Shown piece after piece: positions 1,560-35,409 of a DNA stretch of 35,943 nt; position 1 is the first letter of the stretch, and the number at the start of each line of letters is the position of its first letter. Source of the stretch: Jimgerdemannia flammicorona (taxonomy: Eukaryota); contig RBNJ01000232.1 in assembly GCA_003990765.1 (NCBI GenBank), positions 1 through 35,943 on the forward strand, written 5' to 3'. The position numbers and the translations under genes were made by a program. Below the pieces are notes generated by a model. It did no database searches. It had not been told where the DNA came from and saw only the letters and a program-made list of their open reading frames with translations.

Positions 1560-2720
1560 CCAGTGGGCTAGGATTCTAGTAGGTTTCTTGCGATTGAATA
1601 GTCATTTGAGGGCTGCATGATTTGTGATCAGGGTGAACCTTTTTCCAATGAGGTAATACTTGAACAGGGTGACTGCCCATATGACTGCAAGATATTCCAG
1701 TTTGGTGCTACCATAGTTCATCTGCTGCTGATTGGTAGCTCTGCTTGCATAAGCTATCATATGGTACTGTTGATTGGGTCCTTCTTGGGCCAGAACTGCC
1801 CTGAGGCCATCTTTAGAAGTATCTGTATATAAGATGAATAGCCTCTGTAGATTGGGGCGCATAAGGATTAGTGCTGTAGTTATGCAGTTCTTGAGTTCTT
1901 TGAAGGCTTTTTCTTGTGATTCTGTCCATTTGAATGGTACTCTTTTCTTGAGAAGGATTCGGATTGGGGCAGCGATTTGGGCAAAGTTTTTGATAAACCT
2001 TCTGTAGTAGGATACTAGCATCAGAAATGATAGTATTTCCTTCAGGGTTTTAGATACTGGCCAATTATTGATCTTTTTGGTTTTCTTTAGGTCTGCATGG
2101 GTTTCTTTTTTCAAGACTATAAATCTAAGGAATTTGAGTTTCTGTTTCCCAAAGTAGTATTTCTTTGCATTTAGTCTCAAGTGGTTCTTACAGGTGAGTT
2201 TGAAGAATTCCTCTAGGTGGTACAGGTGTTCTTCAAAATTTGCTGAATAGATATTAGAATCATCCATATATAAAATTAAGCAGTGGTGGATCAAGGGGGT
2301 ATAGACTGAATTTATCATCCTCTGGAAGGTGGGGGGTGTATTACAAAGTCCAAAGGGTATTCTTAGATATTCAAAAAGTTTTCCTAGGGCAAGGAAGGCT
2401 GTCTTTTGAATGTCCTTGGAGTCCATGGGGATCTCATAGAATCCTGCAAAGAGGTCCATACTGCTGAAGTATCTGGCATCTTGTAACTGATCCAAGAGGT
2501 CATTGATTCTGGGCAGAGGATAGACATCCTTTTCAGTGACTGAATTGAGTTTTCTGTAATCTATGCAGAGTCTCTATCCTCCTTTCTTTGGTACAATAAG
2601 TATAGGGCTGGCCCAGGGGCTGGTAGAGGGTTGGATGACTCTATTGTCTAAGAGTTCTTTGATGTGCTCTTTTTCGAATGTTTTCAAGTGATAGGGTATT
2701 CTATAGGGTTTCTGCTGGAT
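1560..2720 (-). pseudogene. Gypsy reverse transcriptase plus RNase H
   Basis: ORF 1602-2495 has YFSSMDL..GFYEI, PFGLCNTPPTFQR, YMDD, FILYTDTS and FTLITNHAALK. The upstream frame reads RLCIDYRKLNSVTEKDVYPLPRI after a stop. Confidence 0.95.
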
Positions 2721-3289
2721 GGGTGTTGCATTTTCTGTATTTATGCTATAGTGATATGATGGACTGTATGGCAGGTTGCCATAATCGGTGGTGAAGATAT
2801 CTTGATATTTGTTGAGAAGTTCTACTAGTTGTTGTTATTGTTGAGGTATCAATTCTTCTCCAATATTGATGGAAGGCTTCACTGTCTCCTGGGTCGCAGA
2901 GGGGCCTTTCCTTTCTTCTAGGACCTTTTGCCATTTCCCAATAGATTTAGTTCATAAACTTCCCTATGAGTTTGATTGAGAAAAGGCACCAGATGTCCTA
3001 TGATCATTCCTTTCAGCAAGATGATGGTCTCCCAACTTTGGTTGGTTGCTCAGGAGTGTACTGGGTTTATTTTGTCAGGGAATGTGTATCCCTCTATGTC
3101 CAGGTGTAGGATATCTTCCTTGGGTTCAAAGAAAAGATTCCTGGGGTTGGGTGGTGCAAAGATTTCGAAGGTAGTTTGTTCTCCAGATTCCAGGATAAGA
3201 TTCTTGTGCAGTCTGACTGGTTGCCAGTATACTTGCTGGGGAACATTTCTCTTGAGGTGATTGACTTGAAGAAGATATACTTCCTTCCT

Positions 3290-5759: not shown

Positions 5760-7010
5760 TTTTCTGCTGAGTAGACTATCTTTCAGGTGGTAATCTTAGT
5801 GGGGTATAAGTCTAGGTCACTGTAGTCTTCACTGTTGCTTGCTTCCTCGAAATCTTCAATAGAATGGGCTTCAGTCTTCTTATACTGGGTATCATTCCTT
5901 TGGTTTGGTGGTTCTGAGTCTCTTCAGTCACTTCTTTTATTATCATATTCAGTGGCATAGTGTCCAAATTGTGCAGTGAAAACATTGGACTTAGGCTCTG
6001 TCTCAGGCAGGGTACCTTCTTTCTTCTTGCTGGTAATTCCTGTTATCTCTTGGTGGATAACCTTGGCTCCTCTGTAGTGGGTACTCTCTGTTGTTTTGGT
6101 AGTCCCAATTTTCACATATAGTGAGTTTTTCAATCTGTCCAACCAATCAGTCCAGCTTGAAGCTGAGGTCTTGGATTTCACTTCTGTCCTTCTTCTCTTC
6201 CTTGGCTGGCCTTCTTTCTTTGGATCTTTCTTATCCTTGAAGGAGTCCTTGTAGGGCTTTGACCAGAATGTCTTCTTTCTCTTCTTTTCTATTATGATCA
6301 CTCCAGGTAGTTCCTTGTCTGATATCAAAGAATCCTTGGGCTGCATCTACTTGCTCTTCAGACCTTCTGATGCCTAGGGTGCAAACATGCTGGGCAATGT
6401 TTGGGGGAATTCCATTCATGAAGATCATTGGACCAATGATGTCCTGATTGGTGGCATTGAACCTGGCAGCATGCATTCTCTTCTGGATTCTTGTGAAGAA
6501 GGCTCTGGGTGATTCTCCAAGATTCATCTTCATTCCCATGATAGATTCTTGAGTCTTATGGTGGATTTCATTTCCTGCATACTTTTCAATGAGCCAGTGG
6601 ACCATGGCCTCATATTCTAGCTCATAAGACATTGCTGCTTGCATCTGTCTTGTCAGTTCTGAATCTGGGTTGTTTGCTGTTCGATGGAAAATTCCTCTGG
6701 CTGGTTCTCTGAGCTGAGCCTTATAGATGGCAATTTTTCTTTTATCTGAGAGATTCCTCAAAATTGTAATTCCTTCAATTCCATCAAGAAATTCTCTGAG
6801 GTCTTCCTCTGGGTATCCTGCAAAGATTGGCAGTAAAGTGGCCATTTCTTCGTCACTTTCTTCTGATTCTGGTTCAGGTTCCGATTCTGATTCCGATTCG
6901 CTTTCTGAGCTGTCACTGGAGATGGGGGTGCTTGGGTATCTTGAGGATGGTGTTCTGGACCTTGGGTGAAGTGGAATAAGCCTAGGTATTCTTGTAGGAG
7001 CTGCTTCCAA
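5760..7010 (-). pseudogene. Gypsy gag (capsid-like region plus decayed CCHC knuckle)
   Basis: ORF 6231-7010 has LPIFAGYPEEDLREFL and GESPRAFFTRI. A frameshifted CFHC..FGHYATE(Y) knuckle lies near 5945-5986. Position directly after the PBS/leader. Confidence 0.8.
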
Positions 7011-7376
7011 TTCAAGGGATTGTGGTAAAGGTTCTATTGGTGAGATTGGTGGAACTGATCTGGGGCATCTGGCTGTAAGGTCTCAGGTTTATGTGATAAG
7101 GTCTTCTAGTTCTTGTACAAGTTCTCCAAAATCTCTAGCAGGGCTGTCTATATTGTCTGGTTGATCTGGTTGGAGATTTCAAGCTGTACTGCCTTCTGGT
7201 TGAGAGCCTTCTGATGCTGGGTAGTTGGCAAGTCTTGATGTAATTACTTCTCTTCCTGTCTAAATGCTAGTGATAACTGGTTCTTCTGTAGTGGTAGAGG
7301 TTGGTATTGTATCAAATATATCCAGTTTGACTGTGGGTTCTTGTGAGCTGAAAAGTCATGTCGATTTTTAAAATCT

Positions 7377-15467: not shown

Positions 15468-15900
15468 CTACGACTGATTCATTTCAAATGCGTATACGCC
15501 CGACCCCAACCATTTTATATTTATTTTGCTCATATCAAAGCCATAGTACGTAAATTCTCTTTGCATAGTGTAATACAGTATATCCGGAACTTCCACCACG
15601 CCCCCGTTACGGTAGAAATCCAGCACATATCGAAAGAGTTTGCCATTACGGTCGATGAATATCTCCTGAAAATCAGGGTTTGGCTCAGCCACCAAGCGCA
15701 CCAGAAGAGTTTCTGGATAGGCGTTGATGGTCGCGCGGGTAGTTTTGTATCGCTTCCCTGCACAATGACCGCGAGGGGTTAATATAGCTGTTATGAATGG
15801 AAGATGAAGAGGGTCAGCAGGACTGTGTGACTTACCACCGACGTCGAAGACTACTCTGTCTGGGTGGGGTGGTCCATTTGGTGAGTCGTTGCCGTGTGCT
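15468..15900 (-). CDS. KCTD-type BTB/POZ (K+ channel tetramerisation-like) domain protein; start codon not resolved
   Basis: Splicing intron 15835-15758 (GTAAGT...TGCAG) gives DRVVFDVGGKRYKTTRATINAYPETLLVRL...EIFIDRNGKLFRYVLDFYRNG...EFTYYG. No in-frame ATG in the upstream exon, so there is a further exon or a lesion. Confidence 0.85.
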
Positions 15901-16249
15901 CTAAGGCATTCGAAAGTGACGCAACTCCAAATATACGAAACTTGTCACGATTTTATGACGTCATCATTTCAGTTCATATGTAATTCTGTAGTTTAGTCCA
16001 TGTATGCATATCCAAGACCACCCAGACTATGTGTTCTTAGAAGACCATTGTCCGGTCTACATTTGGAATTCTATTATCTGTAAATAATTCATATTCAAGT
16101 TCACACTTATGTGTTTTCTTCACATTAACTATATATTTCAATTTAATAATTTTGCTCTATAAGAGAACTTTGAAACTTATTTCTTTAGATATAATATGAG
16201 AGAGAATTGAGTTATTGTCACTGAAAAGATAATTTACAAACTTTGGTGG

Positions 16250-16875
16250 GTAGATGTATAGATCACCCATATTTTGTTCTATTTGTTCATATGACTATTT
16301 TTATTTTAAATATAATATATAAATTTTTAATAATTAGAGCTCTAAGTCTAATTTATTTTGCTTATATCAAAGCTATTATATGTAAATTTTTTGCCATAGT
16401 ATTTTGCAGTACTACAGAAAAGTCCACTATACTTTAGTTAGTACTTCTAATAATTAAATCAAATTGAATTTAACCTAAATTTAATTTGATTCAATTGAAT
16501 TAAAGGTCTAATTCAATTTGATTTGAGATTTGATTTAAACTTTATTTTTGAAATATAATAACTCAACAAAAATATGTCCAAATTTAACAATCTTTAGTTT
16601 ATTAGATTTCTTTATATATAAAAGAAATCTAACAAGCTAAAGATTATTAAATTTGAATATATTTTTGTCAAGTTATTATATTTCTAAAAATAGAGTTCAA
16701 ATCAGACCCTCAATTTAATTCAAATTCAATTTGAATAACTTTCAATTTGATTCAATTTAAATTGAATTGATTTGTTAGAGAGAAAAAGCTCTGGTTATAG
16801 TAGAAATCTAGTATATATATAAATGACTTTCTATTACAGTTGATAAATATCTTCTAAAAATCAAATTTAGCTATA
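16250..16875 (-). pseudogene. Decayed tandem duplicate of the BTB gene, split by a MITE
   Basis: 16351-16433 aligns to ~15519-15602 and 16788-16873 aligns to ~15600-15684 (GTTATAGTAGAAATCTAGTATATAT vs GTTACGGTAGAAATCCAGCACATAT). Differences in these blocks are mostly C>T/G>A. Confidence 0.85.
16439..16787. mobile_element. Foldback MITE, hAT-like, copy 1
   Basis: Starts TAGTACTTC. The 8-bp flanks ACTTTAGT and GCTCTGGT differ only by transitions. Long internal palindrome centred ~16617. Homologous to 20585-20942. The right terminus is degraded. Confidence 0.85.
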
Positions 16876-17914
16876 AGAGAGTTCTTTATATATTAAGGTA
16901 CTATTATATAGTTCTGAAAAGATTTCTAGAAGTTCTGAATATTCTAGAAGACTATTTTCTTTTAGATCAAAATTAATTTTATATAGAGTATATTCTCTAT
17001 ACTTATTGATTTTAAGATTAGATTAATGTTTCAACTAAAGTTCTTTTCTAGACTTGTTCTGGATATTCAGGATTTTCATTATTTTAAGAAGTTAAAAAAA
17101 CTAAAACTAGCTTAGTTAAATTGATATATTGCTGCAAATAATATCTAATTAGGAAATTTCTGGATCTAGTTAAGAGTAAGACCTAATATATATAGTATAG
17201 ATTTACTTAAGAGTAATTTGTAGATTATTAAATAAGTTTATTTACTATTTATGATATTAATAGAGTTATAAATATAATTCAAACTTCAGCAAAGTAAATG
17301 AAACTATATAATCCTTAAACAGTAATATATTAATTAATATAGTTTTAGTATCTCTGAAGTTTTAGTACTTAGTAATTTAGGATCTATTTTAGTTATATAT
17401 ATATCAGTACTAAGTAATAATAGTTAGTAAGCCATAGGTTCAAGACTGATCTATGACAAAGTATCTTGTCACTTTTCTTCTTCAATGATATCAGTAATTG
17501 CAATTAGATATTTTTATATCCCTCCCACTCTTTCTTAATAGTAATATAATAAAGACTTAGTCTCTTTTACTTATATAAATAGTAGGCTCTGAAAGTATAG
17601 ACTTCCATATTAGTCAAACTCAGTCACTTAGTTCTCAGCTAATATTTGGGCTCTACTTTTAGTCATTTAGTCATATATTGAATATTTAGGAATTTTGGAT
17701 ATTTATAATTAATTATGTATATCTTATTTCTATACTTAAATATATACTTTAAAACATATTTCTAAAATTACACTAGTATAAGGATATTTTGCTATTTTTT
17801 GTTTTATGAACTCAGAGTCTTATAGATTTTTATTAGAAGAGAATCTAGACTATATAGGCCAAAACTCTTCTCTACCATATATTGAGTACTACTTCTCTAT
17901 TAAACCTAGACTAG

Positions 17915-19229
17915 TATAATGTGCCAGCTTAATGAAGGCAAATTACAAGGTTTGGGGGTTGATGTGGTTTGGCTTGAGCCCCTAGTTACTTTGTCAAAAA
18001 GTAACAAAATGTTCTAAGATTCCTGAGGTCTTTGGTGTTTAGTGGTATAATAGTCGAAGCTAGATATCTGTGAGTGATTTCCTTATTGGGACAGATCTCT
18101 AGGTGTAGCGGCAATTTGTATGTCTTTTTCTTCTTAAGTCAACTAGGAATAGCAGAATTTCATATATAGTGTAAGCAGTTTTCTTCTTGAGTAGTGGGTG
18201 ATTTCTGTGTAGTGTAACGATCTCCTTATGCATGATGGTCTAGTAATTTAGCAGTTCTCCTTATGTGATTTCTGCATGATGATCTTGGTGTGACGATCTC
18301 TGTATAGTACAGTGGTCTCCAAAAGTATGTAATTTCTGGTATAACAGTCTTGGCGATATTCCTTATGTGGATCTGGTAAATAACTTGATTTGGCTTACTG
18401 GAAATTATACCGGTGTGGTTTCTTCCATATCGGGCTCACTGGGAACAAATAACTTGGATGTCGCGGATTCTTCCTGAATCGGCAGCTCTTCTGGGAATAC
18501 AATGGCATGGATTCTCCTGAATTGGTGGCTTCAACTGGGAATACGGCAGATAACTTGAAAATGGTAGATGACATGGATTCTCCTGAACCAGCAGCTTCAA
18601 CTGGGAATTAACTAGGATTTTTGGCAAGTTATATCAAGACTGGCTTCATTTACATGAAGTTGCATCAATAGACTGGCTCTACTGCAAAGTTGCATCAGAG
18701 ACTGGCTTGTGGTAAGGCTCTCTGAGAATGTGGAAACTGGGGTTCTTCAGGCTTATCTAGCAAGTATACCAATAGTGTGGCTTATTCCTTAAGTGATGGG
18801 TTCTTCAACAGGTGGTGAAGTTCTTTCTCGAACTTGGCGATAAATCTTCAAGCTTGGTATTGGAAAGTAGACCAGAGTGGGAATAAGGAGACCAATTGCT
18901 CAATCTTTAGAGGCTTCTTTGGTTTGCACTTCAATTCAGACTGAGGTTTATTCACTCTTATCTCTGGGGTAATTTATACAAGTTGGTTACTATCTGGTTA
19001 CTATATATGTGGCTAACTATAGATCTGCTACTTATGGCAGATGTATAGAGTCTGTATGGTATACAGAGTCTGTACAGGTAAACAGACCCTTTCTGGTATA
19101 TCTAACTATTTATACAGTTTTCTGCAGTAATGGTTGCTAGTTACAATGCTGTGTATTCACATCATCTTACCTAATTGTTCGCATCATCTGGTTAAGATAT
19201 AATTCAGGTGGTACATTTGGTTTATCACA
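17915..19229 (-). mobile_element. Solo LTR, family A (1315 bp)
   Basis: Colinear with 7396-8785. Termini TAT(<TGT)...ACA, flanked on both sides by CTAG (17911-17914, 19230-19233). No adjacent PBS or internal domain. Confidence 0.93.
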
Positions 19230-20584
19230 CTAGTTATTGTCCAGCAGCTCAACTATACTAGGTACAACAAGACCCTATATAGTCCATATCTCATTTTGTA
19301 TACTATATTCTCTCTTTTTTTTTTTTTTAAGTTACTATATTCTCCTTACCATTAGGAGAAACTCAGCTATATATAAATATCTGAAAACATATACTTAAAA
19401 TTCCAATATATATACAAGACTATATCTAAGCTAAATAGAATAGTTCCTACTACCTTAAGTAGAATAACAGATAAAGAAAAAACTCTCCTTAAAGTATAGA
19501 ATAATAGATAGGGCCTGGTTCTCCTAAGTGAGATAAGTAAAGAACTTATACATAAGATAAGAGGAAATCTCTAATATCCTACTACTCAAGCCTATGAGCC
19601 TTAATCATACATATTGCTACATTAGCTCTCAGTTTCAGTTGAGTATAGCCAAGACACCTGATCTAGGTAGCCTCAGGCCTCTCAGTCATACTTAATGATT
19701 AGAGCCCAATCTCACAAATTATCAAAAGTAGCCAAAAGTAATATCTATTACATAACTACCCTACATCAATTAAAAGGCTCTACCAAAGTAGTATCTGCTT
19801 CAGTCCCAATGACTGCCCCTAGCCTGGTACCCTACTGGTTCATTATAATCACCCTTCTGCTTATCTATAATAGTCATTCCTCTCTCATCCTGACTCTATC
19901 CAAAAGGCAGTCACATATATCAGAACTATACTTATCAGAAAGCTTGCCAAAGCTCAGAGAGCTCTACTACAGATACTGAGAACCTATGGATAACCTATAC
20001 TAGCACTTGATACCCAAGGTCAGCTAACTTTATATATAGCCTATAATACTCCAGATGATATCTTATTAATAATAGTAAAAAGAAGAAGATACCATACTAA
20101 AATAGATATACTTCAGATATAGCTAAAGATACTAGAAACTACAAAAAAGTAGAGAAGACACTGATTCAATACTGATAAAGAGGTAACTCATTACCATTGC
20201 TCTCCTTCTACTATATCTATATAAGTACAGCAAACTAATCTGAGGTAGAGAGATAATAATAAGAGAAAGAAAACTCAGAAGATTATCTACCAAACCTTAT
20301 AACAGTAAGATAGTAGAGAAAGGAGTCTGAAGGATACTTTACTATTGACTAATACTAAAAATAGTATGTAAAGGAATATTTGTATATAGAATTATTCATA
20401 CTCAAGTTATATTCTTGTCTGAGTTTCTGAGATCTAGAAAAGAGAGTAATTATACTAATAGGAGATTATCTAAATTAGAGTAAATATGGATACAACACTT
20501 TAATACTTAATGAGTTAGAATATAGTTACATAGTATAAATTGTAAACTGATATATTAAGAGATCTACTGACTGATAAGTTAGAA

Positions 20585-20942
20585 TAGTGCTTTTAATAAA
20601 TTAAATTAAATCAAATTTGATCTAAAATTTAATTTAATTTAATTGAATCAAAGGTCTAATTTAATTTAATTTAATTCAGGATTCAATTCAAACTCTATTA
20701 TTTGAAATATAATAGCTTAATAAAAAAGTTCAAATTTAACAATTTTTAGTTTATTATATTTCTCTATATAAGAAAAATCTAATAAGCTAAAGATTATTAA
20801 ATTTAAATATATTTTCATCAAGTTATTATATTTCAAAAAATAGAGTTTGAATCAGACACTCAATTTAATTCAAATTTGATTTAATTTAAATAACTTTCAA
20901 TTTAATTTAATTTAAATTAATTTAATTCATTTGAGAGTACTA
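20585..20942. mobile_element. Foldback MITE, hAT-like, copy 2
   Basis: TAGTGCTTT...GAGAGTACTA termini, internal palindrome centred ~20767, colinear with 16439-16787. TSD not cleanly preserved. Confidence 0.85.
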
Positions 20943-22111
20943 GTGAAAATATAGTTATATAATATTAACTAATCTAACTATACTAATAACTGCTAAGCTA
21001 TTTATAGATTTAGATACTGTCTAGGTATTTCTCAATAAAATTACTATTAATAATATCATCTTTGATGAATTAGTTGTCTAAAAAGAGTAGTTCTTAGATT
21101 ATATCTCTCTGTTTATTTATATAGTAGTATGTAGAAATAAAGTAATCATTCTATAGAATAGTATCATCTATCTCATATACTGAGTATGGTATTGGTAGAG
21201 AGAGAAGAAGAAGAGATATATCAACTTTATTTTTATCAGATTCACTGTCAGTATACTTTTGGTAGATTATAGTACTATATATTATAAAGTTATAATATAC
21301 TGGCAGTTGTTCTTTATATTACTCATACTTAGAAAGTGGAGTTGTTGGTTCTATCTCAAGAGTTGTCTAGAGATATAGATTGTATTCTTTTATCTCTTTA
21401 TTATAGTTAAAGTAGTTAGATATAAATGTGGATTAGTACTCATACTAGTAGTCATTATTCTAATAGGTCTTATAGATAGTTATAAACTATTGTAATTTTA
21501 TCAGCAAAGTTGGCAAAGTGATCAGGGTTGGCAGAGATTCTTGACTAGAGAATATCTTGGTATCAGAGAGATTATTGTCTTCTATTTCATCATTATTAAA
21601 CGGGATTATATTATAGATATTCTTTATAGTATATCCAACTTAGAGCATTTGCAGAATATAATTATTTGATATAAAAAGGATCTATTAGTAAATTGGATAT
21701 ACTCAATATATTTCTGATTAAGTTCTTATACTATGTCATTGATTTGACTATAGGTTAGAGTAGTAATAATTTTAGTAGTAGTAACTCAAAGATAGAAAAT
21801 AAACATACTATACTTATAAAAGAGTTCTCAGTATTTACATATAATGAGTTTTTGGTTTTGAGATATTTTGGTAATATCTATATTATTATAGTGGTTAACC
21901 ATATCTTCAAGAAGTTAGCTGATCTGATAGTAGCTTGAGATTTGTCTAATTTGGTGAGTCTTACTAAGCATATATATTCAGAGTATTCTATTAGGCTTCT
22001 ATAAAGTAGAAAGGTACTAGACTATAGAGGCAAGAGCATTATAACTCAGTTGATAATAATATTCTAAATATCAACATAGATGTAGTTATAGACTTCAGTA
22101 ATCATAGCTAG

Positions 22112-22531
22112 TGTGACAATTGATCTAAATTGGTAATATGAATCAGGGGAATAGATATTTAATTATAGTATCTGAATCTAATTTCCAAATATAGTATAGC
22201 CTTATAAATAGCAGTTATATTTCACAAATGTAGAAAACTTTAACAGATATTAAGGATTAATACTTGTGAAGAATGACTTACAGAAAAGATAGTCATAACT
22301 TGGCCATCTTATAGCAAGTAAACTTGTATAAATACATATCTCTAATATCTAGAGCAAATAAACCTCAGATCAAAATAGTTTAAAGTAAAGAGAACTAGTA
22401 AGTCTATGGACAGATATACTTTGAACTCACCCACTCCTGCATCCTGAGAACTCTGTAGAGTTAAAGATGATTATATTTTTAAGATATAGAAATCTAATAT
22501 ACTTATATAGTTATATATTCACTATATTACA
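22112..22531 (+). repeat. 5' LTR, family B (420 bp)
   Basis: TGT...ACA termini, direct repeat of 26809-27310, followed by a TGG-starting PBS-like sequence (primer tRNA not assignable). Confidence 0.9.
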
Positions 22532-27310: not shown

Positions 27311-28999
27311 CTGAGTATATATTGAGAGTTGTGGTTATTATTTATTATTATTCTCTATTTTAGTATACTATATATCTGATATATATACATATCTTTGATC
27401 TTAATTGGTAAAATTCTATTTTTATAAGTTTTATATTTTATGACTCAGCTTTATAATCTATAACTTAGTTTAACTTAGCTTTATAATCTTATATATATTT
27501 TCTGAATTTGTTCTAAGAATGAAATATAATTTCAGTAGCTTGGAGATTGTAAACTTATATTAGCTCTGCCATTAAGCATACTAGGTTAGGTATTGTGACA
27601 AACCAAAACATACCACCCAAATTATATCTTAACCAGATGACGCGAACAATTAGCCAAGATAACATGAACATACAGCATAGTAACCAGCAACCATTGCTGC
27701 AGAAAACTGTATAAATAGTCAGATATACCAGAAAGGGTCTGTTTACCTGTACAGACTCTGTACACCATACAGACTCTGTACACTATACAGGTCCTGTATA
27801 CTATACAGACTCTGTATACCTGCCATAAGTAGCAGATCTATAGTTAGCCATATAGTAACCAGATAGTAACCAACTTGTATAAATTACCCCAGAGACAAGA
27901 GTAAATAAACCTCAGTCTGAAATATAAACACCAAAGAAGCCTCTAAAGATTGAGCATTAGTCCCCTTTCCACTCCAGTTCACTTTCTGATACAAAGCTGA
28001 TTTTGCCACCAAGTTCGAGTGAAGAACTTTGCTGCCTTTTGAAGAACCTACTGCTTATGGAATAAGCCACACTATTGGTATGCTTGTCAGATAAGCCTGA
28101 AAAATCTGAGTTTGCTGCCCAAGTTCAAAGAAGAACTTTGCCACCATTTCCAAGTCATTCGCCACATTCCCAGAGAGCCCTATTCTTGTCACAAGCCAGT
28201 CTGTTGATACAACTTCACAGTAGAGCCAGTCTATCAATGCAACTCTGTGCAAATGAAGCCAGTCTTGATATAACTTGCCAAGAATCCTAGTTAATTCCCA
28301 GTTGAAGCCACTGATTCAGGAAAATCCACATTATCTGCCATTTTCAAGTTATCTGCCATATTCCCAGCTGAAGCCACCACTTTCAAGTTATCTGCATTCT
28401 CAGAATCCATGCCATTATATTCTCAGAAGAGCCAGATTCAGAAGAATTTGTGCTATCTGAGTAGTATTCCCAATTGAAGCTGAGTCTGCAACATCTGAGT
28501 TGATTGTTCCCAGTGAGCCTGAGTTATCAAGTTATCCACCACCAGTACAATTCCTAGTGAACTCGCACCCAAACCAAGTTATCTGCCAAATTATTCAAAT
28601 GTCCCACATAAGGAACTTGTTGCACTACACAGAGATCGCCACCCAAATTACATAAGGAAAGCCACCAAATTACCAGACCATCACATACAGAGATCATCAT
28701 GCTACACAGAAATCACCTGTTACTCAAGAAGGAAACCACTCATGCTATATACAAATTCTGCCATTCTCAGTTGATCCAAGAAGGAAACCCATTCACACAA
28801 ATCACCACTACACCTAGAGAACCGTCCCAATTAGGAAATCAACACACAAATCAGTCGCAGATATCTAGCTTTGACTATTATACCACTAAACACCAAGGAT
28901 CTCAGGAATCTTAGAATATTTTGTTACTTTTTGACAAAGTAACTGGGGCTCAAGCCAAACTACATTAACCTCCAACTTAGTGCTCCAAACGAATGGAGT

Positions 29000-29185
29000 T
29001 GATCCGGATGAGATTCGATTCAGATTCGTCATGTGATGGATTTGAATCAACTCAGATTAGTCTTGTGATCTGATCCAGATTGATCCAGATTGATCCGAAT
29101 TGATCCATCCGGATTGATCCATCCAGATGATTCATCCAGATGATCTATCTGGATTGATCCATCTGGATTGATCCATTTGGATTGA
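29000..29185. repeat. Left subterminal repeat array of the hAT element
   Basis: Dense GATCC/GATT(G) units, e.g. GATTGATCCA reiterated over 29070-29185. Confidence 0.85.
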
Positions 29186-29392
29186 AATCTTTGGTGACGT
29201 CACCCTTTCTTTTGTTCATTTTGCTCTTGTTTTTTTTTTTCTGTCACACTTTGGTGACATCACTCTTTCCTTTGTTCCCTCTCTTTTCTTTGTTCTTTTT
29301 CTTTGTTCTTTCTTGCTGCATTATGAGCAAATAAAACAGTAGCCCTTAATTCATATGTTGGTCCAGTCTACTCATTTTTCACCCTGTAATGA

Positions 29393-29985
29393 TTGTCAAA
29401 AGAGGGAGTATTCGAGGTGGAAATGCACTCTCTACTGACAATGTTAGATTCTTTCTCATATGGACAGCACACAAGCTGCTCATCGAGAGCCAAAGGGGCA
29501 ACAGCAGTAGCAGTGGTGATGGCAATGGTGGGGATGAGGGAAAATTCTGACAACAACTCATGGTGGCCCTTTGGATCTCAGAATTTACAGACCTCACAGC
29601 TATGTAAGCGGGCAGCCTTTTTGGAGCAGCTGATAGTAGATGTAGGTTGCTCACTCAGCCGCCACTTGTTTACTTATGTTTATTTAAACTTCCCCAGCAT
29701 GATCTAATTCACCTCATGCTTTTCTTAGGGTCCACAGCTCTATGGCAAGATCTGCTGACTTTATTCGCAACATCTGGTCAAGATGAAGAAAGGCTGGCAG
29801 ACGTTGCAGGGCATGCCTTTGGTGGCTGAGCTGTTGAGTCAATGCATCGCATAGTGGAGGTCTCAAAAGGAACAGAAGCAAGCCTTCATGAGTAATTCTT
29901 GTGCAACTTGTGCAACTTGTCAGCGTGTAACTCATCGGCATGCAGCTCACTCACTCATACTCTTTTTCTGAAATACCCATCTCCG
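29393..29985 (+). pseudogene. Possible 5' exons of the cargo gene (or a second cargo gene), unknown domain
   Basis: ORF 29393-29641 joins in phase via a GTAGGT...CCCCAG intron (29642-29697) to HDLIHLMLFLG.... The stops TGA and TAA are one C>T from sense codons. No recognised motif. Confidence 0.4.
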
Positions 29986-30152
29986 TGTTTTATTTAATTT
30001 CATTTTTATGTGGTCTCCTCCTAAAAAACACCCACACCCACATGCAACCCGCACATAACCCATCCGCATGCAACCTGCCTGCCTGCATGTAACCTGCCTG
30101 CATACAACCCACCCATATGCAACCCATCCGCATACTTATCTCAGTCCCTCAG

Positions 30153-31393
30153 ATCAGGGCTCAGTTCCATTGGAAAGGAGAGTTCAAAGTTACCTGAGTT
30201 CAACTACGTCCAGCATCTGATCAAATAGAGAAATTCGAGGGCAAGATGTTCAGCATGAGTAGTACCAGCATCATCATCAAGGCTTGGGGGTCTACATTTG
30301 AATCAGAGCCAATTGTACTTGACCAAGGGGTCCATTGGCCAGCAGGAGTAACTAACGACAAAGCGAACCATATCTTTATTAACAAATGTGGAGAGGTGGT
30401 TGTGATGGTGGTAAGGAATCTCTACAGTGACGAGCTTCACCACCACATCAATGAGATTTGCGAGGATTGCATCAAATACTGGGTGGCAGGGAAGAGGGGG
30501 CGAAAAAGCAAGGAGGGGGGGTTTGGATGGGAATTGGGTATACTGCAACACTGGCGAAGGGTGGGTTCCAAAATCCCCCACACTCATCTCTCTTTTTTTT
30601 TAACCCCTCCCCAGATAAATCACACTCTTTGCTGACATACTCTTTTTGATACAATTCTAGAGATATACAAGATTCTGTACCCCTACCAAAACTTTAGAAG
30701 TGCTGTCGAAGAGCAAACTGCGTGTGAGCACAACACAGCCTGTGCGGCGATGGCAGCTATGATCTGGGGTTCTTTGAGCAGATTGGTAGAGTGTATGGCA
30801 GGCCAGCTTAGTGGTGATCTTGGTGCAGTTGTATGTACGTTCTTGGCACAATTTAGCATGCTGTATGAGGTAAGGAGCTCCGCTTTTTTGGGGTGCTGCA
30901 GCCCAGGGAGTTTCTGTGGCCTGGGGGGTTTCTGCCCCCCTGAACGCAAAAAGGACTGACTGGTTGCCATCTGTTTTGGCAGGTTTCCAAGCTGGGGCTC
31001 CCGGGGCTGGACTAAGGGCAGGCATCCACCAGCACAGCCTGGCAGTATGAGGTCCTGGGCCAAGGGTTCACCCAACCATATGCTTGCGTCACATCAGGAT
31101 ATGTTGGGCACAACCTTTCTCTGCCCACACACACAGACAACAACATCACCCCAGTAATGTTTTATATCCTGGAAAGGAAGGGCCCAATCTGGGAAGATAG
31201 TGGCAGAGTCTGGTACAACCTCACCTATGGTTTCGGGGTCCCGTTTGTGGCCAACATGGCCATCCTATTCCAACCACATGACTACCATGGCACCGTCACC
31301 TTTGAGGAGAGCTTGGACACAACAGTCGTCGCACTCACAATGGATGACAGGCTCATCAAGGCCTGGGACCAGTGGGTGGAGCAGTTTTTGTGA
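30153..31393 (+). pseudogene. 2OG-Fe(II) dioxygenase, probably TET/JBP-like, spliced, with premature stops
   Basis: Exons ~30153-30560, ~30663-30869 and 30983-31393; intron 30870-30982 has GTAAGG, CTGAC branch and CAG. The last exon reads VTSGYVGHNLSLPTHTDNNITPVMFYIL...GRVWYNLTYGFGVPFVANMAILFQPHDYHGT...TVVALTM. HxD at 31130-31138, distal H at 31286. Stops at 30195 (TGA) and 31013 (TAA). Confidence 0.72.
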
Positions 31394-31680
31394 GGGTTAG
31401 GCAATCTTTCGTGAGGGTTAGGTAGCCATTTTGTGCGGGTTGGGCAGTCTTATGTGGGGGGGTTGGGCTGGATGCCTCTTATGTAGCACTAGCTTAGCCG
31501 TTATGCAGGGCCCTACCAGCCCCTTGGCCCTGCTCTGTAGTGCCACCAGTGTGGCGCTGCGGCGCAGGGCTGGGGTGCCTGTGGGACCCAAACTGGTGAC
31601 TTCGACCACCAGAAATGCCCTCTGATCACCAGAAGCACCCTCTGACCACCAGAAGCACCCTTTGCCCTGGACTCCTTGGT

Positions 31681-32140
31681 GGCTTGGGGCTGCCCTTATG
31701 CCACTGGCAGAGGGCCATAAATTTTGCACACTCCCTCCACTTGCCCTGCCCATCCCAGACACTTGCGGCTTGGGGCAGTCCCTTGTTGCTGGCGGAGGGC
31801 CACAAATTTTTGCACACTCCCTCTGCCGACCCCATGCCTGCCAACCGACCCCACCCACTGACCTGGGCGCTGACAGCTTGGGGCTGCCCCTCGCTGCTGG
31901 TGGAGGGCCACAAATTTTGTGCACTCCCTCCACCTACCCCCCTGACCTAGACACTTGTGGCTTGGGGCTGCCCCTTGCTGCTGGCGGAGGGCCACAAATT
32001 TTGCATGCTCCCTCTGCTGACCCACCCACCAACCTACCCACCAACCCGCCCACCGACCCGCCCACCAACCCAGGCACTAGCAGCTTGGGGCTGCCCCTTG
32101 CTGCTGGCTGAGGGCCGCAAATATTGCATGCTCTCTCCAC
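31681..32140. repeat. GC-rich array: five copies of a ~58-bp core with variable C-rich linkers
   Basis: Core GCTTGGGGCTGCCCCTTGCTGCTGGCGGAGGGCCACAAATTTTGCACACTCCCTC starts near 31682, 31768, 31877, 31960 and 32083. Confidence 0.92.
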
Positions 32141-32294
32141 CGCTACCACCAACCCCACCCCACTTTGGCTGCAAACTCCAGGCTGAGTCCTCAGGTTTTT
32201 TTTTCCTTTTTTATTAATTTGAAAGGTATTAAATATTCCACAAGGCCAACCAACTTATCCGCAGACCTGCTGAATTATAGTGGCCCGAGCCCCA

Positions 32295-34864
32295 CTAAGA
32301 CTTCAGATACATACATACCTGGATTGTCTCAGCATTCAGCACACACCTCTTTGGGGCAATGAGGTCCACTCTATCTGAGAACATCCACTCGACGGGAGCA
32401 CTGGAGGCAGGAATCGCCAGGTAGTCCCAAGCCATACCACACAGGCTGGGGAAGTCCATTTGATGCAGCTGCACACCCCGGTGGGTAGAGCAGTGGTTAG
32501 ATTGGTGGGTTAAATTGGCCCAACGCCTGCCTGACAACCCACCTTCCACCAGTTGAGCACCTCTATACCCTCCAGCAGAACCATGTGGTCGCTGGTGAGG
32601 TAAATAGTAAGTTCATCTATTGATGGCAGCTCTTCCACTGATGGCTCCCTCTTCCTCTTTCTGCCGAAGTAAATGTGGGACAGGAGGGATCTCTCGGTAT
32701 ATTCGTCTGGACTTTGGCCAGAACCTTGCAGTGGTGCATAGTTTTTCTGGTATACTTCAATTATGGCCTGCTTGGTTCTCTCAATGAAGTGCTACTCCCA
32801 GCCCTGATCTTTATGGTATTGTAGCTTTAAGTGTGGGTCCAGCACTGTTTGAAGAAAAGGAGAGTGAGTTTTTGTGGGGTTTCCTCTGTTTTGGAAGAGA
32901 CAACAGCCATATGCCGATATCGATATACCTGTACTGATTGAGTATACAGCAGTATCTGTTTGGGAGTAGTATTTTCTAAGCTTGCTTAGAGCAACCTCTA
33001 TGGCGTCTCTCTGATCCAGGCTTAACTGTAAATTACTACAACCCTCCAGCCTATCCTCGAGCTTGTCCTCTAGCTGGTCAATCAGAAGGTTGTATACCGG
33101 TATTGCAGAGCTTATTGTCAGGGTCATTTGTTTGACTATATCCTTTGTACAATCATCAAAACACTGGCAGTTATATGTGGTGAGGTGTTGCACTGTGTAG
33201 AGGTAGACAAAATGAGTGTAGAGCCAGAGCAACCACCACTTACTTCCAAAACTCTGACAACATTCCTAAGTACGTCTCACTCACTTTCACCTAGAGCCTT
33301 GGCCCATATTTCCTTGTCGGCAGCCATCATTGAATCTATTGGCTTTTTTTTTTTTTTTTTTTTTAAAAAATAAATCTTCCATCATCCAAAACAGTTGCTT
33401 CAGCTGACTAAAGAAAAAAAGAATGCATACCACAGCAAACTCCAGTGCATGCTGGATCATTGCAAATGTTGAGTTCCAATGTGTACAGATGTCCAATATA
33501 AGCTCTTTCAGGGCTAAACTGATTGCCCTACACTGTGCAGCGAATTTGTCTTGTTGTTGTGGGGATGATCGGACTGACACAACCAGTTTGTGTAGCTTGG
33601 AATTTATACTCAGGGCCCCTCCTCTCTCAGATGTTTTGTCTATATACATAAGATAGTCCTGAACAGCGAGGTTCAATACATGGGCCTGGCATCATACATG
33701 GCAGCTTTCTGCACTGAAGGCCACGTTTTTCTGTTTGAGGCTGGCCACTAAACCTTGGAAAAATGTTGAGTTGTTTGTGGCATTATCTGTCGTAATGGCC
33801 AAAATCTGTACTTGAAATATTTGGTTGACAAATTTATGTAAAAATAAGTAACCAATAAAATCTGGTTTGGTTTAGGACCTCCCTCAAAATGCCGACCTGA
33901 CAGCAAGCCCCCCTTTTTTACCTTGGTGGTGATCCCAAGCTCCCGGATATAACTAATAAAAGCATCTGTGATGTTGTCTCCAGAATGAGGGCCAGCAAGT
34001 TTGATGAAGTCAAGGGTGAGAGATTTAAGCTGCCAATCGAGGTCAATCCAATGACCAGTAATGCTCAGAAATGAAATTGCATTGGGGGATGTCCATGAGT
34101 CGATCATAAATGAAATTTTGCCTGCCGAATTCTGCTTATTGAATGTGAGGTTAAATTGGTAAGCTCTTTTATATAATTCAGCTTACAAAGGTCATGGTGC
34201 TGCCCTTATTTTACCTGAAGTATCTGGCAGAGATTGTTGTGCTCCTTCCTATAGGCCTCCAGGACATCTTTGTGAATAGTATCAGCACTTGGCAAATATA
34301 AATCATACTTGAGGAGGCCAAAGATGCTATGTAATTGATCACTCTCGATGGTTGTGAATGGCTGGTCTGTGCACATAATCCAGCGAATGAGCTGATTTCG
34401 AAATTCTGCCAAAGAGTATGGCTAAATATTTTTGATTAAATGGTATTGTTGGTACAGAAATAGTCAGGCAATCAGATAAACGTACCCACCACAGCTTGGA
34501 TGTTGATTTTATTTGTCTCCATGTTCTTTTTGATTTTGTCAGAGTGCTTGTCTTTTATGTGTCGATTCATGTTCAAAGTCGTACCCCCAAGCATTTTGAA
34601 CTTCTGGCTGGTATAGTTCATGGAGGTGGATGAAACAATATCATGTGTGTGTCAAAACAATATCATGTGTATGTCAAAACAAAGTGTCAATAGGGGCATC
34701 TTAATTTTTTACCTGCAATAATTACAAACAACATCAACTCCTATCTTAGCACAATGTTGCCAGATTTCAGAGTGAGGATTGCATGGAAGGTGTGAAACTA
34801 TCAGGGATGTTTGACTTGAAGCATCATCAGTACTGTGAACTGTTGAAGACTGATCTGTCGACAT
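32295..34864 (-). pseudogene. hAT transposase, multi-exon, inactivated
   Basis: ATG at 34864. BED finger (IWQH..VVCNYC / TTLNMNRHIKDKH), DQPFTTIE, FMIDSWTS (D), ITTDNA (D), CQAHVLNL, THWNST, KLRKYY, VLDPHLK, WWK|..FPSL..MAWDYLAIPASSAPVEWMFS (E, dimerisation domain). About 7 GT-AG introns and several premature stops. Confidence 0.95.
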
Positions 34865-34959
34865 GTGTGTTTGCGTGTTTGTGTATGCATGTGTATGCGT
34901 GTGTGTGTATGTATATATATATGTGTTGTGTTGTGGATGCATCCGGCATATGAGTCATG

Positions 34960-35352
34960 TGGAGGATTTGGATTGGAGGATTCAGTTGAAGGATTCAGAT
35001 AAGAATTCAGATTGAAGGATTTGAATTGGAGGATTTGGATTGAGTGATTTGGATTGAGTGATTTGGATTGAGTGATTTGGATTGGGTGATTTAGATTGAG
35101 TGATTCAGATTGGGGTGGTTCAGGTGGGTGATTCGGATGGGTGATTTGGATGGGACAATTTGGATGGAGCGATTCGGATTGAGTGATTCAGATTGAGTGA
35201 TTCAGATTGGGGTGGTTCAGATGGGTGATTCAGATGGGGTGATTCAGATGGGGCGATTTGGATTAAATCCGAGTTGATTCAGATGGCTTCAGATTTGAGA
35301 TTCGAATCAAACTGTCATGTGACAAATCGAATCCGGATTTGATTTGAATTGA
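34960..35352. repeat. Right subterminal repeat array of the hAT element
   Basis: Tandem ~14-bp units GATTTGGATTGAGT / GATTCAGATGGGT / GATTCGGATTGAGT. Confidence 0.9.
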
Positions 35353-35409
35353 CTTGTTCGGAGCACTACTCCAACTTGTAATTTGCCTCTATTGAGCCAG
35401 CACATTATA

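Follow-up and report, generated by a model that had tools for sequence, protein, structure and literature searches.

A spliced, probably TET/JBP-like gene carried by a decayed hAT transposon in Jimgerdemannia flammicorona

The contig RBNJ01000232.1 of Jimgerdemannia flammicorona (assembly GCA_003990765.1), whose positions 1-35,943 are called the window below, holds a 6.4-kb hAT transposon at 28978-35368, delimited by reading the sequence and by a repeat search. Besides its transposase gene the element carries a second gene, referred to here as the cargo, and an original prediction made from the letters of the sequence had proposed that this cargo encodes a dioxygenase resembling the TET/JBP enzymes, with which the element might counter methylation of its own DNA. 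The explanation that we favour, and hold to be fairly probable, is that the window contains a decayed copy of a multi-copy hAT with an 8-bp target site duplication (TSD) and two convergent protein genes, one for a transposase interrupted by several introns and the other for a spliced protein of ~300-370 amino acids (aa). The latter protein would most likely be a far relative of TET/JBP with a classical HxD...H triad, and its layout is nearest to that of the PE type, one of the transposon-borne types of enzyme described by Kojima (2025, PMC12730594).

That the element is a genuine hAT insertion was apparent from its ends, where the clean terminal inverted repeats (TIRs) and the 8-bp TSD that had been claimed for it were both found. 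The TIRs are 13 nt long and complementary at 12 of 13 positions, and exact copies of the TSD, CTCCAACT, abut both of them, a match expected by chance at a rate of about 1/65,000 (4^-8) for a given repeat pair; a 7-bp reading of the TSD is incompatible with these TIRs. Subterminal arrays of short repeats, which are usual for hAT elements, lie inside both ends (Table 1). When the flanks were joined without the element, no open reading frame (ORF) spanned the junction, a result that is uninformative as an empty-site check. In its 8-bp TSD, short TIRs, subterminal repeats and C-terminal hAT dimerisation domain the element is like canonical hAT transposons of the Ac/Tam3 kind, but it differs from them in an extra 2-3 kb, made up of the second gene and a block of GC-rich repeats, which brings it to its full length. 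The number of repeats in that block must differ among copies of the element, since metagenome contigs either lack 55-307 nt of it or have them more than once.

The earlier claim of a hAT transposase convergent with a spliced gene was upheld by the last piece of the minus-strand chain of open frames, which matched Pfam Dimer_Tnp_hAT (PF05699) at E 3.7e-9 (36.7 bits, with a cut-off of 21.4), the sole match above cut-off among the 11 window frames scanned against Pfam. The central exon pieces of the transposase had no Pfam match, and the motif CQAHVLNL resembles what we take to be the hAT block C-x-AH-x-LNL. A check for an N-terminal zinc finger of the BED type gave a weak Pfam row, zf-H2C2_5 at E 0.086, and a CxxC...HxxxxH pattern was seen by eye in the ORFs 34709-34954 and 34472-34651. 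Two of the transposase frames each contain one in-frame stop, a TAG (...DQGWE*HFIERTK...) and a TGA (...AESCHV*CQAHVLNL...).

The cargo lies on the plus strand, convergent with the transposase, and its three exons are joined through GT...AG introns. When exon 3 was searched exhaustively with phmmer through 1.84 billion representative proteins (E <= 0.001), five matches emerged, P0002 (2.4e-64, 81% identity), P0003 (1.8e-34, 54%), P0004 (7.7e-14, 35%), P0005 (4.2e-12, 37%) and P0006 (8.8e-6, 38%), and word-indexed searches added one further relative, P0007. All of these came from metagenome or Logan contigs and had no informative names. A scan of metagenome contigs with the cargo identified two further loci, L001 (35% identity) and L002 (32%). 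The cargo family is thus far a small and deeply diverged one, known only from metagenome sequences, and each member found was on a small metagenome contig, within repeats where the DNA was readable. That the cargo might be a chance ORF was considered and rejected, its exon 3 having homologues down to E 2.4e-64.

The exons align to P0005 in the order of that protein: a stretch of exon 1 (30339-30500) to residues 92-147 (E 4e-8), exon 2 to residues 174-209 (E 2e-6) and exon 3 to residues 234-345 (E 8e-19). Downstream of 30502 the homologous reading shifts to the frame of the ORF 30455-30649, and this shifted frame (P0023) aligns to P0005 residues 145-167 (E 4e-4). An extra A behind 30502 was present in the contigs of four of four metagenome runs, so the 1-nt deletion there is private to the window copy. 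Both introns have the same positions and phases in L001, which is only 35% identical, and, judged from its relatives in sequence, the cargo is a real, old and spliced gene. Of the gene structure first proposed, 30153-31393, the three exons stood, but 30153 lies in another frame and exon 1 runs from about 30246; the HTD and the distal YHGT that had been seen in the last exon were located as given in Table 1. A possible further exon upstream, a weak candidate, has an in-frame TAG, and it has AT where L001 has its donor GT. The only full-length intact relative is P0005, whose 374 aa are read without interruption from a 1702-nt Logan contig, whereas genomic copies contain two or more introns. P0005 could stem from an assembled transcript, in which case its organism would express and splice the gene, or from a copy devoid of introns.

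The original prediction had left room for a cargo confined to this copy, and the phmmer homologues, the two loci and the soil metagenomes all spoke to the contrary. In four sequencing runs from two studies of soil metagenomes, contigs covered 30, 29, 29 and 30 of the 30 bins into which the element was divided, cargo included. One of these runs, X1, covered 30/30 bins, the spacer between the two genes among them, and held 2258 contigs at 80-100% likeness to the element (325 at >=99%, 704 at 95-99%, 884 at 90-95% and 345 at <90%). Position 32794 is G in other copies, giving CAG in place of the transposase TAG; with the extra A behind 30502 counted as well, at least two of the defects in the window copy are private to it. 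In L001 the cargo is situated 1.66 kb from an end that is like the right terminus of the window element, with 24 of 28 positions identical and a score that was reached by 0 of 300 shuffles (15 of 300 for the last 25 nt alone). The left terminus of the element had no match in L001 or L002, the contigs of which stop short of their own left ends. Given this recurrence across homologues, loci and runs, the cargo cannot be put down to a one-time capture. Downstream of its cargo, L001 has two spliced-looking frames of 93 and 94 aa (2320-2945, plus strand) with no Pfam match and no counterpart in the window, and these could be a third gene of the L001 element.

As to what the cargo encodes, the triad HxD...HG[TS] is conserved among its homologues, with the first His in 22 of 22 rows, the Asp in 18 and the second His in 21, and it is kept in all four diverged lineages, the exceptions all falling within one near-identical multi-copy subfamily. 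The metal motif reads H-[TV]-D in all cargo lineages. Constraint on the family is indicated by the conservation that spans lineages at 30-47% identity. Indirect evidence for a TET/JBP identity came from language-model neighbours in the ESM Atlas. Exon 3 was nearest to two unnamed clusters (0.93 and 0.92), in which the few members assigned to a phylum belong to Basidiomycota; next came one cluster in which 11% of members carry Tet_JBP (0.90) and another in which 72% carry PF20515 (0.87). P0005 was placed next to a cluster from Basidiomycota, 15% of whose members carry PF20515 (0.96, 209 shared features), and one from Mucoromycota (0.95).

In layout the cargo is closest to the PE type. Set by eye against the PE entries printed in Table S1 (PMC12730594), it shows five collinear blocks over ~280 residues, the best of them, ungapped and counted by eye, being identical at 13 of 35 positions to one Laccaria entry. 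Shared features begin with an N-terminal N-[YH]-I-F...E-[IV]-V...V-x-R-N, followed by G-x-S-A-G and a block with a hydrophobic F/W helix; then comes the metal motif with an Arg ~14 residues on, then D-x-G-G-x-F-[FY]...Y-G...N...H-G-[TS]-[ST], and finally an end of the form G/S-L-S/T-x-V that lacks the usual Arg, where the PE sequences have Q, H or I. There are two differences, namely that the cargo family has HxD where PE has HxE, the hallmark of that type, and SAGYT or GIGYT where PE has SAGSR. The cargo looks unlike the PU and AG types in the same table, and with PU it shares only the generic GG...F and HGT blocks, again by eye and with no statistic attached. PE itself is reported to be barely visible to HHpred (E 1.4 to CMD1) and to have been tied to CMD1, NgTET and CcTET via predicted structures (PMC12730594), with which the empty profile searches for the cargo family are in keeping. 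Based on its sequence, then, the cargo is probably a very divergent, PE-like member of the TET/JBP-like Fe(II) dioxygenases.

Several results weigh against this reading, and the first group of them concerns the enzyme itself. Neither the cargo exons nor their homologues had a Pfam match at E <= 0.001, and Tet_JBP (PF12851) and the Tet-like 2OG-FeII_Oxy_6 (PF20515) were not listed even at E <= 10, a ceiling at which the HMMER filters conceal most rows above E ~0.1. NCBIfam gave nothing for the cargo family and PHROGs only rows at chance level, and family profiles run against the sequences of the PDB returned no row and then one chance row, TAF6 at E 0.48. The Atlas recognition value of P0005, 2142, is below the mark of 2300, and the tool rates the score as weak. 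The comparison with the PE type carries no alignment statistic. Most 2-oxoglutarate (2OG) oxygenases bind 2OG through an Arg 10-16 residues past the second His, and no basic residue, Arg included, is conserved at that distance in the cargo family, which has scattered R/K at about +21 to +28; this agrees with the caveat about the missing Arg that came with the original prediction. AlphaFold2 models made from thin alignments of 7 and 15 rows had a mean predicted local distance difference test score (pLDDT) of 37.9 and 35.1, and with such a poor model Foldseek and VIA returned noise-level rows, mostly 2OG oxygenases and cupins with NgTET1 among them. The TET/JBP-like identity thus has the triad, the language-model neighbours and the PE blocks on its side, but no profile match, and its models are at pLDDT 35-38.

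Such results also fit a protein with a cupin or double-stranded-beta-helix fold that is no relative of TET/JBP, in which the HxD...H binds metal to some other end, be it in another Fe(II) oxygenase acting on protein or a small molecule, or in a non-catalytic accessory of transposition. We regard this as unlikely. The fold rows that would speak for it come from models with pLDDT <40 and are at noise level, which leaves little meaning in their ranking; where language-model neighbours bear a family at all, it is Tet_JBP or the Tet-like PF20515; the block match with PE spans the whole PE length, well beyond the metal site; and PE, too, lacks the usual Arg, the last two points being judged by eye from Table S1 of PMC12730594.

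A second group of adverse observations concerns selection. L001 and L002 are 99.0% identical, and their eight exon differences are all non-synonymous (8/8), two of them being stops, with changes that are mostly G>A and C>T; single copies must therefore decay neutrally after insertion. Since hAT elements capture host DNA, the cargo could be a fragment of a host gene taken up by one hAT lineage through transduplication and of no use to the element, and that the window copy and L002 are broken, with neutral-looking changes from copy to copy, is what would be seen in that case. In our judgement this is quite improbable, given that the cargo is a whole gene with conserved introns and no fragment, that its members are on small metagenome contigs and in repeats where these could be read, that lineages diverged to 30-47% identity have nevertheless kept the triad and five sequence blocks, and that in a second genome, rich in AT, a related cargo and a related terminus are neighbours. 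The last adverse observation is that no contig from outside the window bridged the spacer between the genes (31393-32295) among the 32 pieces listed of ~2600, contigs being short. It leaves room for the notion that the cargo belongs to some other element nested in the hAT and is paired with the transposase by accident, to which we give very little credence: the repeat search of the window revealed no inner inverted repeats or duplications that bracket the cargo region, run X1 includes the spacer in its complete coverage, and the L001 cargo sits within a hAT-like end. The reading of the cargo as a divergent TET/JBP-like enzyme that belongs to its hAT is the one retained below.

The original prediction knew of no described pairing of a hAT with a TET gene, but such pairings are on record in Kojima (2025, PMC12730594), where TET/JBP genes are reported from eleven DNA transposon lineages of rusts, mushrooms and Pezizales. 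Section 3.1.2 of that paper describes TET-carrying hAT elements, twenty families from six Puccinia species with a 7-bp TSD (hAT7) and an enzyme of the PU type, and the carriers that it gives for PE are transposons of Agaricales and Pezizales, with no hAT listed among them. Like the element of the window, hAT7 of Puccinia is a fungal hAT with a TET/JBP-like gene beside its transposase, for which the same anti-silencing role has been proposed. The two differ in TSD length, 8 bp here and 7 bp in hAT7; in their cargo, which is of the PU type in hAT7; and in their termini, insofar as the one hAT7 5' end examined in Table S1 begins unlike the TAGTGCTCC of the window element. That 9-mer occurs once in the text of Table S1 covered (the first 400 characters of each cell), inside an EnSpm entry. 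The literature searched contained neither a further report of a hAT that carries TET/JBP nor a corresponding one from arbuscular mycorrhizal fungi. A hAT with TET-like cargo is accordingly a kind already known, and the novelty within that literature is an 8-bp hAT whose cargo is a PE-like enzyme with HxD that escapes Pfam.

It is possible, although we put this forward tentatively and with more doubt than conviction, that the cargo family adds a fourth to the transposon-borne types PU, AG and PE of TET/JBP-like enzymes, one with a PE-like layout and HxD that lacks both of the likely 2OG-binding arginines of PU and PE (a role that is our own reading of those sequences in Table S1), that perhaps has another co-substrate or makes another base modification, that travels on an 8-bp hAT and that may live in hosts other than the three fungal groups known for such enzymes. 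The idea about hosts comes from one subfamily being in a very AT-rich genome and one neighbour cluster being Mucoromycota. As for the co-substrate, CMD1 of Chlamydomonas has the same HxD...H triad and the TET/JBP fold, and it is described as a TET homologue that uses vitamin C, not 2OG, and as the nearest solved structure to the PE and PU types (PMC12730594, section 3.4). By analogy, the cargo family might likewise use a co-substrate other than 2OG, a speculation drawn solely from the missing Arg.

The copy in the window is dead. Its cargo has the frameshift in exon 1 and an in-frame TAA in exon 3 (31013-31015), where P0002 has Glu, and its transposase has the two stops, as the nonsense mutations noted at the outset had indicated; with both genes broken, this copy is non-autonomous and incapable of the proposed anti-silencing activity. 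In bins of 1.5 kb the observed/expected ratio of CpG is ~1.0 in the genic stretch at 10.5-16.5 kb, 0.27-0.34 in the hAT element and 0.0-0.12 in the long terminal repeat (LTR) retrotransposon (1-9 kb) and the AT-rich repeats (16.5-28.5 kb), so the strong CpG loss that had been claimed for the transposable elements (TEs) was amply visible, and TpG and CpA are in excess in them. The element therefore sits among CpG-depleted repeats, next to genes that are not depleted, and its own higher CpG ratio may be a sign of either youth or protection. Comparison of the window copy with the metagenome copies showed that 32 of the 40 best-supported differences are A/T here and G/C elsewhere; nine of these 32 are in CpG-derived contexts, about the background share, and 14 create TpA. 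The CpG depletion and the A/T-ward changes imply a host that mutates repeats by C-to-T, which fits methylation-linked decay, and part of the decay of the element may resemble repeat-induced point mutation (RIP) rather than plain CpG deamination.

Other features of the window were recorded alongside these. The stretch at 16501-22500 has 24-28% GC with a TpA/ApT ratio of 1.15-1.19 and a (CpA+TpG)/(ApC+GpT) ratio of 0.90-0.96, values that are RIP-like, and the younger TEs of the window are opposite to it in the latter ratio, at 1.5-1.7. Remains of LTR retrotransposons from which CpG is nearly gone lie at 1602-2573 and 6231-7082, both on the minus strand; one frame has RVT_1 and RNase H (E 1.9e-24 and 9.2e-31), with a gag-like frame upstream that had no Pfam match. 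In the CpG-normal stretch, an ORF at 15468-15944 (minus strand) matched BTB_2, a BTB domain of the potassium-channel-tetramerisation type, at E 1.2e-14, and is probably a host gene.

Table 1. Positions of the parts of the hAT element in the window, with the basis of each.
Feature	Position	Strand	Basis and details
Left TSD copy, 8 bp, CTCCAACT	28970-28977		Read directly, checked by script
Left TIR, 13 nt	28978-28990	+	12/13 complementary to 35356-35368
Short repeats inside the left end (10-14-nt units resembling GATTGATCCA)	29040-29208		Repeat search, two families
Possible upstream cargo exon (weak)	29828-29896	+	No better than E 1.4 in tblastn with the upstream exon of L001; by-eye likeness to the N-terminus of P0005 and to L001
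Cargo exon 1	30246-30560 (start approximate)	+	Matches to P0005; 1-nt deletion behind 30502; donor G/GTGGGT at 30561
Cargo exon 2	30661-30869	+	Match to P0005; intron position and phase as in L001
Cargo exon 3	30983-31393	+	HTD 31130-31138; YHGT 31283-31294; second His 31286-31288; stop 31391-31393
GC-rich (58% GC) tandem-like repeats between the two genes, ~85-123 nt, 4-5 copies	31600-32150		Repeat search
hAT transposase, several introns	32295-34864	-	Chain of open frames and Pfam; stops TAG 32792-32794 and TGA 33692-33694
Region coding for the Dimer_Tnp_hAT domain	~32301-32468	-	Pfam
Right subterminal repeats, 14-nt period	34960-35290		Repeat search, three families
Right TIR, 13 nt	35356-35368	-	Inverted repeat pair with 28978-28990
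Right TSD copy, CTCCAACT	35369-35376		Read directly, checked by script

CpG-depleted repeats beside undepleted genes, as in the window, form the setting for which an action of TET cargo was proposed (PMC12730594, section 4.2). In an active copy of the element the cargo enzyme would be expressed and would act on methylated transposon DNA, oxidising or otherwise modifying its 5-methylcytosine or some other base, and the modification would loosen methylation-based silencing and slow the C-to-T decay. This anti-silencing role is a hypothesis already in print (PMC12730594), and it is extended from there by analogy to the element described here. Transposon-borne TET/JBP enzymes are leading candidates for the means by which fungal transposons may counter a defence that relies on DNA methylation (PMC12730594, section 4.2; PMC13297926), and a 2026 review still terms them uncharacterised (PMC13297926). 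To these candidates the element would add a carrier, the canonical hAT, and a type of enzyme that is invisible to profile libraries; because those libraries miss the cargo family, surveys that depend on Pfam or on the known types probably undercount such cargo. Soil metagenomes are rich in this family, and as some of the copies there are free of the two private defects of the window copy, intact members should be recoverable.

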